Assembly: GCA_000004985.1 (NCBI GenBank)
Contig: GG738856.1
Source of the DNA: Naegleria gruberi
Taxonomy: Eukaryota
Length of the DNA stretch: 64,000 nucleotides
Strand: one strand, 5' to 3'
This document shows positions 10,103 to 16,975 of the stretch, piece by piece. Both the position numbers and the translations under genes were made by a program. The number at the start of each line of letters is the position of its first letter. Within the stretch, counting starts at the first letter, position 1. The notes below the pieces were generated by a model that was given only the letters and a program-made list of their open reading frames with translations, had not been told where the DNA came from and searched no databases.

Positions 10103-13100
10103 ATGGCCCAAGAACAAAAAGACAATCACGAAACCAATCATCATCAAGTAAATAGTGATGCAGCATCAGCAGCACAAGTATCGGGATCTTCTGAAAATAC
10201 AAGTGTGAGCAAGGCATCAGTGGCAACCACACAATTGTTCAATTCGGCTATTAATTCTTTTGTTTCTCAAATGGCAGGATCAAAGCCTTCTTCCGATCAA
10301 CAACCATCATCAAATAATAATAGTAATACTAATAGTAACATAACTGAACATTTTGTTGGTTTATCGAATCAAGGAGCGACATGTTATTTAAATTCATTGA
10401 TCCAATCATTGTACCATACACCAGAGTTTCGTCGAATGATTTTGGAGTGGAGATATAATCCTGATAAAGATCCAAGCAAGGAAAGATGTATTCCATATCA
10501 ATTACAAAGACTTTTTGCATATTTGGCTTTATCTAAACGTAAAGCAGTGCCAACTACACACTTGACTAAATCTTTTGGTACGTTATTTCAATCTAATCAG
10601 CTTGTTTTAATTATCATTTTCTTGATCAGGCTGGACACAATCGGATGCTTTCGTTCAACATGATGTACAAGAATTGAATAGAATTTTGTTCGATGCTATC
10701 GATGTATCATTAGCAACTGATAAATTATCTCAAGAAAACCCAATGGAAGGAAAACAAGAAATTGGCAAATTGGCTCACTTTGAAAATATTTTGATTAGTG
10801 AAATGTATAGTGGTATTATGATTGATTATATCGAGGCCAAGGATGAAAGAAGAGAAAATGGACAACCATACGGAAGAGTCAGAGAAGATCTCTATATGGA
10901 TTTGCAACTTGTTGTTCGTGGTATTTCATCAGTTGAAGAGGCTTTGGATTCTTATATTAAACCTGAAATTATGGATGGTGACAATCAGTGGATCTGTGAA
11001 GAATTACAAGACAAGAAAGTTGATGCAGTCAAGGGATTAAAGTTCAAGACTATTCCATACATTTTCACATTGCATCTCAAGAGATTTGACTATGACTACA
11101 CAACATGGAATAGAATCAAATTGGGTAACATGGTAACCTTCCCATTTGAACTCGATGTTTCTAAATATCTGGAGGATAACACTCAAAACGCAATATATGA
11201 ATTATTTGGAGTATTGGTGCACAGTGGTACTTCATCAGGAGGTCACTATTATGCCTACATCAAGAGTTTCTCCTCTGACAAGTGGTACAACTTTAATGAT
11301 AGTAATGTTTCTGAAATTGATAGAGAACAAGTGAAAGTAATGTTTGGTAACAATGACAGCTCTTCTACTGGTAGATTTGCCTCATCAACCAATGCCTACA
11401 TGCTTTTGTATCGTAAAAGGGATGAGAAATTGAATATTAATTCTGTTGACATGTCTATTATTCCAGAAGATTTGAAGGAAGAAGTTGAAAAAGATAATGA
11501 ACAAATTGAGGAGGAGGTCAGAAAGTCAGAGGAATTACGATCAAATATTACAATTAGAGTTAAATCAGAAAACCAACCAATCTTGAACTTGAGTGTAAAG
11601 AAGACAGATACAATGCAACAAGTTTTGGAAAAGGTGTATGAAGCCATGTCAAAAAGAGAGAATTTCTTTACTCGCTTCCATAATTGTAGATTAAGAAAGT
11701 ATGATATCATGAAACAAACCCCAACATCGTCATTCCAAAATCATGCAGATCAACCAATTTCAAGATTCTGTCATTTCAATGGAGCTTTAATTTATCTTGA
11801 GACTAAAGAATCTGACGAAGAATGGAAAGAAATTGCAGAAACCATTTCTGTTTATATCTGTCCTTTCAATCAAGATATTAATGAATTTGATCAACCAAGA
11901 TCCCTCAAAATAACAACAGTACAAACACTTGACGAAATCAAGATGAGAATAGAAGAAGAACTTCAAAGAGAAAAGTATCCTCATGAAAAAATTAATCTTG
12001 TAATTTCTAGAGGTGATGAAGTGATTATTTTCCACAATGAAGAGGAAAGATCCAAATCTATTGAATCTGGTTTGAATATTGCAAATACTGATCTTATTTA
12101 TGTGGAAGCATTGGAAGATCCACTCCAAAATGTTGAATCTAAAATCATTCAAAAATTGGAAGAAATGAAGTATTGTTTTGACATTTTGGTCAATACCATT
12201 GAAAGTCCAAACGATTATACAACCTCTGTAACTGTAGACAAGAGAACTACTGTTGGTGACTTGAAGAAGAAAATTGCAGATATGATGAAGGTAGGAGTAG
12301 ATGATTTCAGACTCTGTTCCAAGACTAGATTCCAACCAATTAAGGAGAATTTACTCATTTCTGAGTGTTCTGAAGTTTTTGAATATTGTCAGCTTCATGT
12401 TGAAAAGGGACAAGCTTTGAAGGATGGAGAATACATTATTCAACTCTATGTTCACTTACCTTGGCTTTCAGAACAACTTCCACAAGAATCTAGAACTGAA
12501 GTAGATATTAATCCTGACAAGATGGTAGCTGAGCCATCTCCAGATTGTCAAGTTATGACTTGCGAACCTCCACCATCATCAACTGCTCTTGTTTTGGCAG
12601 CAGAGAATGGACCAGTTTACAATCCATCTGTGAAGCTTTTGGATAGAATGAACAAGTTGAAGGAAGAAATGAGACTTGTCGATAAGGTTGTTATCAGTGC
12701 TCAAGAAACTTTGGGAAGTTTCAAACAAAGAATATTCGAAAAATACTTTTCCGATCCAGAATCTGACCAATTTGTCCCATTAGAGTTAATGAGATTGAGA
12801 ATGAAACTTGGAGTTTTCTTCCAAAAGATTTTGATCAATGACGAAAAGACATTGAAGGAAAATATTCCAGACCTTGCTAACAATAAGCAAATTGTTGTTC
12901 AATTTCTGGAAAAGCCAGAAAATTTGAAAGAAGGTGATTTGACTATCAAGGTTCAAAGGTGGCAACCATTATCTTGGAGTTTCTATGGAGGTTCAGATGC
13001 CAAATTTGAAGTAATTATTCCAAAGCAACAAGAACCACTCACACCTCAAGTATTCAGATCACTCATTTATAATGCCCTGAAGGATACTGTCTTGTCAGAT

Positions 13101-13574
13101 GTTCCTCCTGAAAGAGTTGACCAAATTGGTATTTCCCGTGCACCACACCAATTTGATTACTTTATCATTAAGGAATGCATTCAAGTTGCAATTTTGAATT
13201 ATGAGGAAATTGATACACTCAAGGATTTACACAAGCCACCTTTCATTTTGGCTCAAGACGATATTATGATCATTAGACTAAAGGATGAACTCGATAAGTA
13301 TGATATGACTGAACTAAAGACTAAGAGAGCATCAGCACCAAGTAGTACTGGCCGTGTTGAGAAGGCTCTCAAGATTAATGTTATTGATAAGGAAACTGAA
13401 CAAAAAGAAGAGGAAGAAAGAAAAAAGCAACAAGAGCAACAACAAGCTTCATCCACCAGTGCTAGTGGTGAACAAACTACTGTCAATGGTGGTGATAAGA
13501 TGGTTGACGATACAGCTCCAACCAGTACTGGAACTGAAGAAAATCCAAAGAAGAAAATGAAATCAGACGAATGA
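10103..13574 (+). CDS. Ubiquitin carboxyl-terminal hydrolase of the USP7/USP47 family. Two exons, approximately join(10103..10577,10630..13574), about 1139 aa.
   Basis: Cys box 'GLSNQGATCYLNSLIQSLYHTPEFR'. The spliced junction reads 'TKSFG|WTQSDAFVQHDVQELNRIL'. His box 'YELFGVLVHSGTSSGGHYYAYIK'. A long C-terminal region matches the tandem ubiquitin-like domains of USP7-type enzymes. There is no N-terminal MATH domain. The intron is GTACGT...TTGATCAG, 52 nt. Confidence 0.85.
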
Positions 13575-13634: not shown

Positions 13635-14770
13635 TTAATCATCATTCAAGTATTTTCTCACATCATCGTTGGATTCGTAGGCCCAGCCTAAATTACTTGT
13701 AGCCGATTCAAGAATTGATGTGTTATCACCTTCACAAGCTCCAAACACATATCCACTTGCTCTGTCTACTGCTTTCAATACTCTCAGAACGCTCTCCTTA
13801 TCTTGAATATTCAGAGTGCAAAATGAAACGAGTGAATAATCCTCAATCACATCAGCCATTAGCTTGTTCAACCTCTTGAACCTATTTCTGTAATTTTTAA
13901 CTTTGTTTTGTGGAGTATCCTCATCATCTTGCATAATATCCTCTTCTTCCTCTTCTTCAGCGTTATTGACATTGCACTTTTCACCATGTTCATGATCTGC
14001 TTCACAAACAGGTTTCTTTCCCATATTTCTTACCAAATAGGATAAATCCTGAACCTGTGTATAAAAGTCAATATCAAAAGCCAGTTTTCCATATTGTTGA
14101 ATCAAGTCAACCTTGGACAAAACATTTACATGAGGAAGTTCCAATCTGATCATTATCGACAAGGAAACCATCAAAATTGAAATATATTTCGATGGATCTG
14201 TACAATGATGAGCATCCACTAAATTAACAGCACACAATCTGAAATGCCAGCCATTTGTTAACTTGTCACAAATATCCCTCACAACATTGTAATGTGTATA
14301 TAATTCAATTTGTCCAGGCATATCAAAAATTACATAATACGAATCATCTTCAATATATGGTTTTAACTCTGTTTTTAACCAATCATCCATATGTTCCTTT
14401 AAATATTCTATACAATAAACAAGTCCACCATTTGGTCCTAATTTTAATTCCTCCATCACAGGTTCTATCGAAACTAAATCTTGAATATCCACAGCACATT
14501 CATATTTATATCCTTCATTGGCAGGATCCAAATTTACTACAATTACTTTTCTTCCAATTCCTTTCAAAAATTGTTGCATTCCATCACAATATGTACTCTA
14601 TTAATATTAATAATTAAATCATCATTATTAATCATATGATGAGAATTACAAATATTAACGTCAATACAAAAATTATTATCATTTCATCATGGTCAATATA
14701 TTAGAATTAATCGGAATCTTCTTACCTTACCACTTCCAGGTGGTCCACAAACGATTTGACCAAAAGGCAT
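13635..14770 (-). CDS. GPN2: GPN-loop GTPase 2. Two exons, approximately complement(join(13635..14597,14726..14770)).
   Basis: Exon 1 'MPFGQIVCGPPGSGK' followed by a GTAAG donor. Exon 2 'STYCDGMQQFLKGIGRKVIVVNLDPANEGYKYECAVDIQDLV...LGPNGGLVYCIEYL' closely matches GPN2, including the GPN motif. Confidence 0.85.
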
Positions 14771-14892
14771 TTTTTTTCTATGAATGAAAAAGATGAAGTT
14801 TTGTTTTTTCGGAAGATGAGGATGAACAAATTATTTCATCATCCGAAAAATAATTTTAATTCGTGGCGTGATGACAATAGAAAGAAGAAAAA

Positions 14893-16104
14893 ATGGTTTC
14901 ATTCAATCACAAAGAGTTTCAAGAACCTGTAAAGATTATTTTGAGTGATTTCCTTGATGATTCAACAAGGAATCTTAATAGAATGCTCCGATCGAAATTA
15001 ATGATCAATTCGCAACAACGTTTGGTTGATTTTCTGTTTCGTCTCTTATCCACCGAATATCCACCGCCACCCTCTTCATCCACACCATTGTTGTTGAGTG
15101 ATAATGGTAATAGTGAATCGGAGAAGGCTTCCTTGCCATGTTGTAAATTGAGTGAGGAAGAAATTTTGCAAATTTGTTCGATGGTGAGTTGTTTTTGTAT
15201 TATGATGATCATTATATTAATTCAATATATTTAACAATATATTAATTAATTGATTATAATTAAATATATTTAATAGTCGAGTAGATATTATGAAAATGTT
15301 CCGAATGTTATTAGATTAAATTCACCTTTATCAATTTGTGGAACAATCAAGGGATCTTTTTCGAGTTTGGACAAGATTTTGGATGAATGTAAAATTGTGG
15401 ATCGAGAAAAACATACTGTAAATTATCAATGTAATGGATTATTGGTTTTGGGAGGATTTTCATTGACTCCATTCATATCAGGTCCTTACAAATTGCCAAG
15501 ATATGCCTACTTTACTGTTGAGGTCGTTTTGGTATTGTACTGTTTGAAATTGTTAATGCCTGAAAAGGTGCATCTATTGAGGGGAAGTGTGGAAAATAGG
15601 TGGGTTAACTTTGGAAATTTTCATGATGTTTGTTTGGAAAGATTTGGAAAAGAGTCTGGAAAGAGGGTTTACAATGCAATTTCAGATATATTCCTGGACT
15701 TACCATTGGTAGCAATTGTGGATAATCAAGTCATGTGTGTAAATTCTGGGCTACCTTTCGGAGGACTGAAAGAAATAGAGGATGAAGAGAGAAGAATTGG
15801 ATTGGAGAGTGCAGAATATACCAGTGCCGTGTCAGCATGTACAATGCATGAGGCTGAAGAGGTTCATGGATGGAAACTGAAACCACTGGCCAGTGAGTTA
15901 TTATTCGGCCCAGATATAACTAAAAAGTTTTTGGAGGAGGAAAATTTGAAATTGTTAATTTCTGGAAAATTGTTGTGTGATTCTACCTCTACAGCTCATG
16001 ATGGATTAGTGCTCATGGTGAGTAGCTTCCCAAGAGATGGACTACTGGGTGGTGTTATCCATCTAGAACGTAATTGCAAGTATAGAGTATTTTCATTCAA
16101 ATGA
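14893..16104 (+). CDS. PPP-family (PP1/PP2A-like) phosphatase-fold protein with all catalytic metal ligands substituted, so a predicted pseudophosphatase. Two exons, approximately join(14893..15183,15277..16104).
   Basis: The sequence aligns to the PPP core. 'ICGTIKGS' stands in place of the GDxHG motif. 'VLGGFSLTP' stands in place of GDxVDRG. 'LLRGSVEN' stands in place of LRGNHE. 'VMCVNSGLP' stands in place of the HGG motif. The flanking scaffold 'YNAISDIFLDLPLVAIVDNQ' is conserved. The intron runs GTGAGT...TTTAATAG. Confidence 0.6.
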
Positions 16105-16975
16105 AAGTTTACAATGACATGCATTTGATACAAACTAGCTGAAATTTAGATTATTTACATGAAAAGATTCGTAGATTGTAAATGAGCTTTACAATAACGA
16201 AAATTTGATACAAAACTGCAATTTTACAATCATTCATTATTGGTCACAGATCAATAGATATTTCAAGATTTCATCTTGAGTGAAAAATCTTTCCATTGCA
16301 TGATCAACAATACAACCAATATCTCCTTCTAAAAATGTAACTTATTGGATCATGAAAAACTGTACAGAAATCAACCAACCCAAATGCATGAAAGATTACA
16401 ATTTTCTAATGATAGGAGAATTAGGTCAATTTCAAATCTCCATAATTAACATTTTACATTGTAAACATTCGATTGTAAAGTCAATTTCAATTTTCGCACA
16501 GAGTATTATCTATTACCAGCTAAAGAGAAATTGAGAAGCTCGCATAGACCTTATCTTTGTACTGATCAATAATGAATCTACCCAATTTCCTTTCAATTCG
16601 TTCATCAACAAAAAAGCCAAGTCATAATTCGTGCTTTCCCAAAAAGCAAAATCATTTCTTTCTCTCGCTCAATTTTTTAAAAATAAATTACGCATAAAGC
16701 GAAAGTTACCTTGGTTTACTTTTCCCGCCAATTTTTTTACTTGTTCCTTGATCAACCAAAAACTCCCGAAAAGCAATAAATAGGGCTCGGTTTTGAGGTC
16801 ATCAGGAAAATAAAACTTTAAAAAAAAACAACGAAAACAAATCACTCGAGTTTCTCTCCAAGAAGCCTTTGTAAGATATCATACCTGTAACCAAGTTTGC
16901 TTTTTGTAATCATATTACCACCACACTCTGTGTAAATTATAACAATACCTGTATTTTAAAACAATCCTTAGAAAA

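Follow-up and report, generated by a model that had tools for sequence, protein, structure and literature searches.

PfPPP8 has been described as the first pseudophosphatase of the PPP family to be characterized experimentally (Morano et al. 2023; PMC10317984). This large protein of the basal complex combines an N-terminal EF-hand region with a C-terminal PPP domain that is degenerate in motif 2 only (GNLINRG), with N1311 and N1314 as the mutated residues (PMC10317984). In addition, kinetoplastid-specific PPP pseudophosphatases (kPPP, second PP2B cluster) have been predicted (Brenchley et al. 2007; PMC2175518), and PPP-like cases of the Ppn2 type have been catalogued in fungi (PMC13216928). 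Here we describe a gene of Naegleria gruberi, located in a 64,000-nucleotide stretch of genomic DNA (the window), that encodes a more thoroughly degenerate member of the family. As with PfPPP8 and EFPP, selection appears to have kept, in a protist lineage, a PPP catalytic domain that is predicted or shown to be inactive. Compared with PfPPP8 on the basis of its published description, however, the N. gruberi protein is a stand-alone polypeptide of 372 residues in which every catalytic motif is destroyed, and we find no EF-hand or other Pfam domain besides Metallophos in these 372 residues. Heterolobosea and kinetoplastids are both members of Discoba. Like the kPPPs (PMC2175518), the N. gruberi gene is a lineage-specific, long-branch PPP paralogue of that group with substituted catalytic residues and is predicted to be inactive. 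It differs from the kinetoplastid kPPPs in that its only orthologue is heterolobosean, and no kinetoplastid proteins are present among its close relatives in a HMMER search of 1.84 billion representative proteins. We regard it as a dead PPP gene of an already known kind, which stands out mainly because its active site is so completely erased and because a second heterolobosean has kept the gene.

The DNA around the gene is compact, AT-rich (34% GC) and poor in introns, and the gene itself has the following structure.
14893-16104, plus strand: pseudophosphatase gene of Naegleria gruberi, two exons, 372 residues, ATG at 14893 and a TGA stop
14893-15183, plus strand: exon 1, 97 codons, encoding an extension at the N-terminus together with the first PPP helix (…KLSEEEILQICSM)
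15184-15276, plus strand: intron, 93 nt, phase 0, GTGAGT…AATAG
15277-16104, plus strand: exon 2, 275 codons and the TGA, encoding the entire degenerate PPP catalytic domain
The exon 1 reading frame opens at the first ATG downstream of an in-frame stop, and reading through the unspliced intron leads to an in-frame TAA after 17 codons. A sequence-only reading of this DNA had proposed a gene model with a 93-nt intron at about 15184-15276, and our own reading of the sequence gave the same exon and intron boundaries. The public N. gruberi model at this position, a "predicted protein, partial" of 80 residues on a 602-kb scaffold (XP_002679671.1 / EFC46927.1), was recovered by HMMER among the 1.84 billion representative proteins and is 100% identical to residues 176-255 of the 372 (window 15511-15750). 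An exact look-up of the full spliced sequence in a collection of 15 billion proteins gave no match. The public gene model needs correcting, from an 80-residue partial fragment to a two-exon gene of 372 residues.

Upstream of the gene are found the following features.
14771-14892, no strand: intergenic spacer of 122 bp between the pseudophosphatase gene and a divergent GPN-loop GTPase gene
13635-14770, minus strand: GPN-loop GTPase gene, with Pfam ATP_bind_1 at 13635-14579 (E 3e-65)
14726-14770, minus strand: first exon of the GPN-loop GTPase gene, ATG at 14770, MPFGQIVCGPPGSGK, followed by an intron of ~125 nt
10103-10663 and 10674-13574, plus strand: pair of open reading frames for a ubiquitin hydrolase (USP-type), matching Pfam UCH positions 1-82 and then 117-254
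The 122-bp spacer is presumably a bidirectional promoter. The USP-type gene sits further upstream, beyond that of the GTPase, and its two reading frames are probably a single gene, split near 10663-10674 either by a very short intron or by a shift of frame.

The homology of the protein to PPP phosphatases is far above chance. In a phmmer search of all PDB chains, residues 82-369 of the 372-residue protein match human PP2A-C with an E-value of 1.1e-21, the next matches being PP1, PP5, calcineurin and BSU1, and a tblastn search of the 64-kb window with PP2Ac as the query returns 15304-16098 as the sole match (E 2.6e-23). The profile alignment to Pfam Metallophos (PF00149), which the sequence-only reading had put forward as a check, scores 25.1 bits relative to a gathering cut-off of 21.5 (E 2.8e-5), although the match covers residues 179-327 only and is thus confined to the C-terminal two thirds of the domain. 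An AlphaFold2 model of exon 2 computed from a 40-sequence alignment has a pLDDT of 88.5 and a pTM of 0.89, and Foldseek superimposes it on PP2Ac (8twi_C) with a TM-score of 0.83 and an E-value of 7e-23, and on PP1 (TM-score also 0.83) and PP5 with similar scores (0.80-0.85 overall); the alignment consists almost entirely of active PPPs, however, so that the likeness of the model to active PPPs is partly built in. Prediction from the single sequence gives an uninformative pLDDT of 32, and the good model therefore depends on the alignment. Its only disordered part is the insert after motif 2 (pLDDT <50, exon-2 residues 61-68). With this proviso, the model suggests that the PPP alpha/beta-sandwich scaffold is kept. 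The protein resembles active PPPs (PP2A-C, PP1, PP5, PPKL/BSU1) in its predicted fold and order of secondary-structure elements, at 20-26% identity and the same range of TM-scores, but differs from them by an extra N-terminal extension and an insert of ~10 residues after motif 2. The extension matches no Pfam domain, and the orthologue described below is the only other protein in which a related segment was found. A possible lead to the Chlamydomonas central-apparatus PPP chain 7n6g_4D ("FAP15") was dropped, our search of the literature having found only the ordinary central-apparatus PP1c and nothing about this chain.

Alignment to PP2A-C places the former catalytic residues as follows, with PP2A numbering for the active enzyme.
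15337-15354, plus strand: motif 1 remnant, CGTIKG for CGDVHG (orthologue CGCMAG); D57 is replaced by T120 (C in the orthologue) and H59 by K122 (A in the orthologue)
15448-15492, plus strand: motif 2 remnant, LGGFS for MGDYV (orthologue LGNFS), and the ~10-residue insert that comes after it; D85 is replaced by G157 (N in the orthologue), D88 by P (T in the orthologue), and R89 is matched by an R whose alignment within the insert is ambiguous (M in the orthologue)
15580-15597, plus strand: motif 3 remnant, RGSVEN for RGNHES (orthologue RGSYEN); N117 is replaced by S201 (also S in the orthologue) and the catalytic H118 by V202 (Y in the orthologue)
15742-15750, plus strand: HGG remnant, NSG, in the context CVNSG for CLHGG (orthologue SSG); H167 is replaced by N253 (S in the orthologue)
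15886-15888, plus strand: position of the phosphate-binding Arg214, occupied by L301 (Ser in the orthologue)
15961-15969, plus strand: sixth metal ligand, SGK for RAH; H241 is replaced by K328 (Asp in the orthologue)
Neither protein retains any of the six metal ligands (D57, H59, D85, N117, H167 and H241), the residues at these positions being T, K, G, S, N and K in N. gruberi and C, A, N, S, S and D in the orthologue. The wider alignments pair ICGTIKGS with VCGDVHGQ in motif 1 and LVLGGFS with LFMGDYV in motif 2. The insert (LTPFISGPYK) follows LGGFS, and the orthologue has one of similar length. The arginine that might be aligned with R89 belongs to the sequence KLPRY, which falls within this insert where disorder is predicted, and is Met in the orthologue. 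The replacements CGTIKGS, GGFSLTP, GSVEN and NSG listed in the sequence-only reading are all present where it had placed them, and its claim that every metal ligand has been replaced is borne out and extends to the sixth ligand, which was missing from its list. The list also lacked the substitution of Arg214 by L301, the ~10-residue insert, the loss of the SAPNYC (beta12-13) loop, at which SAPNYCYRCGN has become SSFPRDG, and the absence of the PP2A tail TPDYFL, the protein ending with CKYRVFSFK right behind the last strand. PP2A Tyr265 and the C-terminal residue likewise have no counterpart. In contrast to active PPPs, then, the N. gruberi protein has no metal ligands, catalytic His, Arg214 or SAPNYC toxin-binding loop, and no PP2A C-terminal tail.

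A different splicing or reading frame that restores the ligands, the possibility that the sequence-only reading had raised against itself, was also examined. None of the strings GDxHG, GDxxDRG, GNHE, HGG and SAPNY occurs in the six frames of 14500-16500, and alternative splicing cannot restore the motifs because all of the degenerate ones lie in one uninterrupted exon. Without metal ligands, the general-acid His or Arg214, the N. gruberi protein should therefore be unable to work by the PPP mechanism. From its sequence, this is a PPP-fold protein that has been stripped of its catalytic machinery and is predicted to be inactive.

Only one protein among the 1.84 billion representative proteins searched with HMMER is clearly closer to the N. 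gruberi protein than are generic PPPs (P0003/P0151; E 4.5e-22, about 32-33% identity). This orthologue is carried by two metagenome contigs that are 99.8% identical, L001 (ENA) and L002 (JGI), and its open reading frame of about 360 codons is intact. It has an upstream exon and a 38-nt intron (GTACGT…ATAG) that interrupts the gene at the homologous codon boundary, EEICDM/ASRYYESVPNV in one protein corresponding to LQICSM/SSRYYENVPNV in the other, and the N-terminal block ILxDxL…RxLxxMLR and the helix LSxxExxxICxM are kept. The last ~30-40 residues of the domain are absent from the orthologue, and hence the fold may not be fully conserved in it. The neighboring gene on the contig is the following.
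L001 927-3449, minus strand: BUB1-like kinase, 840 residues
This kinase is 52% identical to its counterpart in N. fowleri, 47% to that in N. gruberi and 44% to that in Willaertia magna, and these identities indicate that the host is an uncultured vahlkampfiid heterolobosean resembling Naegleria and Willaertia. The N. gruberi locus is not syntenic with contigs L001 and L002, the BUB1-like kinase of N. gruberi being on another scaffold (1.56 Mb). No orthologue was found in the annotated proteomes of N. fowleri and W. magna, in which the gene has either been lost, and is perhaps dispensable, or is present but unannotated. A scan of metagenome contigs with a profile built from the two orthologues detected no further loci.

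Several observations bear on whether this gene is maintained or is instead a pseudogene in decay, or a relic that drifts neutrally with its frame still open. Extreme divergence (about 26% identity to any active PPP), an official annotation that consists only of the 80-residue partial model, and the lack of an annotated orthologue in N. fowleri and W. magna all count in favor of a relic. Nevertheless, the probability that a 372-codon frame is open by chance at the base composition of the window is ~1e-12, and frames of 372 and about 360 codons have both stayed intact, as have the position of the intron and its splice signals in the two lineages, despite about 67% amino-acid divergence, for which the chance in the absence of selection is negligible. 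Moreover, nucleotide identity between the two genes is 0.42, 0.61 and 0.38 at codon positions 1, 2 and 3, respectively, with position 2 being much more conserved than position 3 (chi-square 33, p 9e-9), although alignment at the protein level in itself raises identity at positions 1 and 2. For the dN/dS comparison that the sequence-only reading had proposed as a check, the NG86 estimates are 0.79 for dN and ~1.9 for dS, but pS (0.69) is saturated, so that the ratio of ~0.4 is only indicative. Contigs L001 and L002 differ by very few SNPs, and 3 of these 3 are synonymous. The blocks that are conserved between N. gruberi and the orthologue (LCLKLLxPExxHLxRGSxENxW, FLDLP, ExLFGPxxTxxFL, SRYYExVPNV and the N-terminal extension) coincide with structural elements. 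By contrast, of the 8 old active-site positions compared (the six ligands, His118 and Arg214), 7 carry different residues in the two orthologues; N117 alone has the same replacement, Ser, in both. The intact 372-codon frame in AT-rich DNA, the spliced intron and the intron at the same position in the orthologue suggest that the gene is maintained rather than being debris, in keeping with its ordinary, compact chromosomal setting, and we consider a pseudogene or drifting relic unlikely. Selection thus seems to preserve the protein but not its former active site.

The subfamily from which the protein derives is less clear than its membership of the PPP family. Group HMMs built from subgroups of the database hits, in which the "long" class comprises Kelch-PPKL and PPPs with N-terminal EF-hands, give 114 bits for the long class, 109 for PP1-like and 102 for PP2A-like proteins when scored against the N. 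gruberi protein, and 74, 76 and 71 bits, respectively, for the orthologue. Two indel characters are common to the N. gruberi protein and this EF-hand/Kelch class: the spacer from motif 1 to motif 2 is long, and the GNHE helix is followed by a +3 loop. Neighbor-joining bootstrapping pairs the two orthologues in 100 of 100 replicates and places as their sister group PP5 in 42, PP1-like proteins in 19, the long class in 10, PP2A-like proteins in 2 and a mixed group in 27. A local block, FGPDITKKFLEEENL, is close to FGPDVTKAFLEENNL, which we take to be the corresponding segment of PP5; similarly, 13 of 19 residues in the block FGPDITKKFLEEENLKLLI (window 15880-15945) are the same as in what is presumably the PP5 segment FGPDVTKAFLEENNLDYII, whereas the rest of the domain is far less alike. 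PP5-type proteins (TPR/PPP5 domains) are also among the top matches behind the orthologue when the two-orthologue profile is used. The label "PP2A-like", suggested by the best single-sequence matches, was dropped in view of the near-tie in HMM scores and the bootstrap value of 2/100. The "PP1/PP2A signature" of the sequence-only reading consequently holds at the level of the PPP family but not at that of the subfamily, and descent from PP2A is not supported by these sequence comparisons.

These data are relevant to the idea that the protein is a specific decoy for PP2A-type partners (the A/PR65 scaffold, alpha4/Tap42, PTPA or TIPRL), in which it would mimic the metal-free, latent form of PP2Ac. 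Although PP2A-C provides the best single-sequence matches, the HMM scores rank the PP2A-like group below both the PP1-like and long groups, PP2A-like proteins are rarely recovered as the sister group, and the TPDYFL tail, which governs holoenzyme assembly, is absent. Glu42 of PP2Ac is needed for alpha4 binding, and the equivalent position is Val in both orthologues. A decoy with this particular specificity therefore seems quite unlikely to us.

On balance, we think that the gene probably encodes a catalytically dead PPP paralogue, restricted to vahlkampfiid heteroloboseans and maintained by selection, for which the most likely role is that of a non-catalytic protein-protein binding module. In such a module constraint would fall on the core helices and strands, on SRYYExVPNV in the first helix, on E-x-LFGPxxTxxFL and on ILxDxL…RxLxxMLR in the N-terminal extension, while the old pocket drifts freely, and the protein might act as a scaffold, or as a decoy that occupies the partners of active PPPs, through surfaces located off the old catalytic pocket. 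Because the scaffold and some surfaces are constrained and the pocket is not, a binding or scaffolding role is favored over a trap for phosphosubstrates. The sequence-only reading had offered a dead-enzyme regulator and a substrate trap side by side; its dead PPP fold, which is probably functional, stands, but the trap fits poorly with pocket residues that are gone and that have been replaced differently in the two orthologues. PPPs bind phosphate through the two metals, Asn117, His118, Arg89 and Arg214. A trap would require the dead domain still to bind phospho-Ser/Thr substrates in the old pocket, so as to shield or sequester them, and there is precedent for this among pseudophosphatases, trapping having been suggested for STYX-type proteins and speculated upon for PfPPP8 (PMC10317984). 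PfPPP8 retains most of its motifs, however (PMC10317984), whereas the N. gruberi protein has lost the metal site together with Asn117, His118 and Arg214. Even if the KLPRY arginine were aligned with Arg89, this assignment is doubtful given its location in the disordered insert and the Met in the orthologue, and the divergence of the pocket between orthologues implies that it is not conserved as a binding site. We therefore regard a phosphosubstrate trap as very unlikely. That the protein is still an enzyme, with some other chemistry or substrate, is highly improbable, since yeast Ppn2, which is active though classed as a pseudophosphatase by motif (PMC13216928), is altered in part of one motif only, while here none of the Asp, His and Asn ligands is left at the six positions in the N. 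gruberi protein and the two orthologues do not agree in what has replaced them.

The preferred reading, a dead PPP domain that serves as a binding module, can be extended to a more specific proposal, which we put forward tentatively and consider rather unlikely as it stands. The stand-alone domain might be a dedicated regulator or structural component specific to heteroloboseans, the conserved N-terminal extension and non-catalytic surfaces of which titrate or localize regulatory subunits that belong to active PPPs, as could happen during the switch of Naegleria from amoeba to flagellate.

As part of placing the protein among its relatives, we counted ligand losses in its 130 best database relatives with coverage of 5 or more ligand positions, a sample biased toward degenerate proteins because the query is itself degenerate. 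At least two ligands are lost in 32 of the 130 and at least four in 15, and all six in a single protein, CAI2376964.1 of Euplotes crassus. The degenerate protist PPPs, from Euplotes crassus and metagenomic contigs, resemble the Naegleria protein in being single domains of ~300 residues with 4-6 of 6 ligands replaced, but they lack its insert and its extension at the N-terminus, and their scores against it are no better than those of active PPPs. On this sequence evidence they look like independent losses rather than one family. Many of the HMMER matches (P0004, P0005, P0010, P0066 and P0028) are single-domain PPPs with 4-6 of 6 ligands lost, each alone on a contig of ~1.1-1.3 kb, a size that suggests ciliate nanochromosomes. 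The degenerate single-domain proteins of the P0004 group, including CAI2376964.1 of E. crassus, are not annotated as pseudophosphatases. Another relative, a 574-residue "PP2A" from Lutzomyia longipalpis (P0002; UniRef100_A0A7G3B0U1), has two near-complete PP2Ac copies fused in tandem, head to tail, probably through an error of assembly or annotation, and the doubled domain raised its search score. The view in the sequence-only reading that PPP pseudophosphatases are rare is accurate for the experimental literature, in which PfPPP8 was called the first to be characterized in 2023 (PMC10317984), but does not hold for sequence space, where roughly a quarter of the nearest relatives (32/130) have lost two or more ligands.

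Judging from the census, protists commonly have degenerate PPP paralogues, which are annotated as ordinary phosphatases or not annotated at all, and this has a bearing on phosphatome counts, which take PPPs as always being active. N. gruberi is free-living, tractable and related to the pathogen N. fowleri. If functional, its protein would be a second PPP pseudophosphatase, independently evolved and more radically gutted, beside PfPPP8, the sole experimentally studied member. Should the proposal of a dedicated regulator prove to be true, it would define the second functionally important family of PPP-type pseudophosphatases after PfPPP8, and the first in which the entire active site has been erased.
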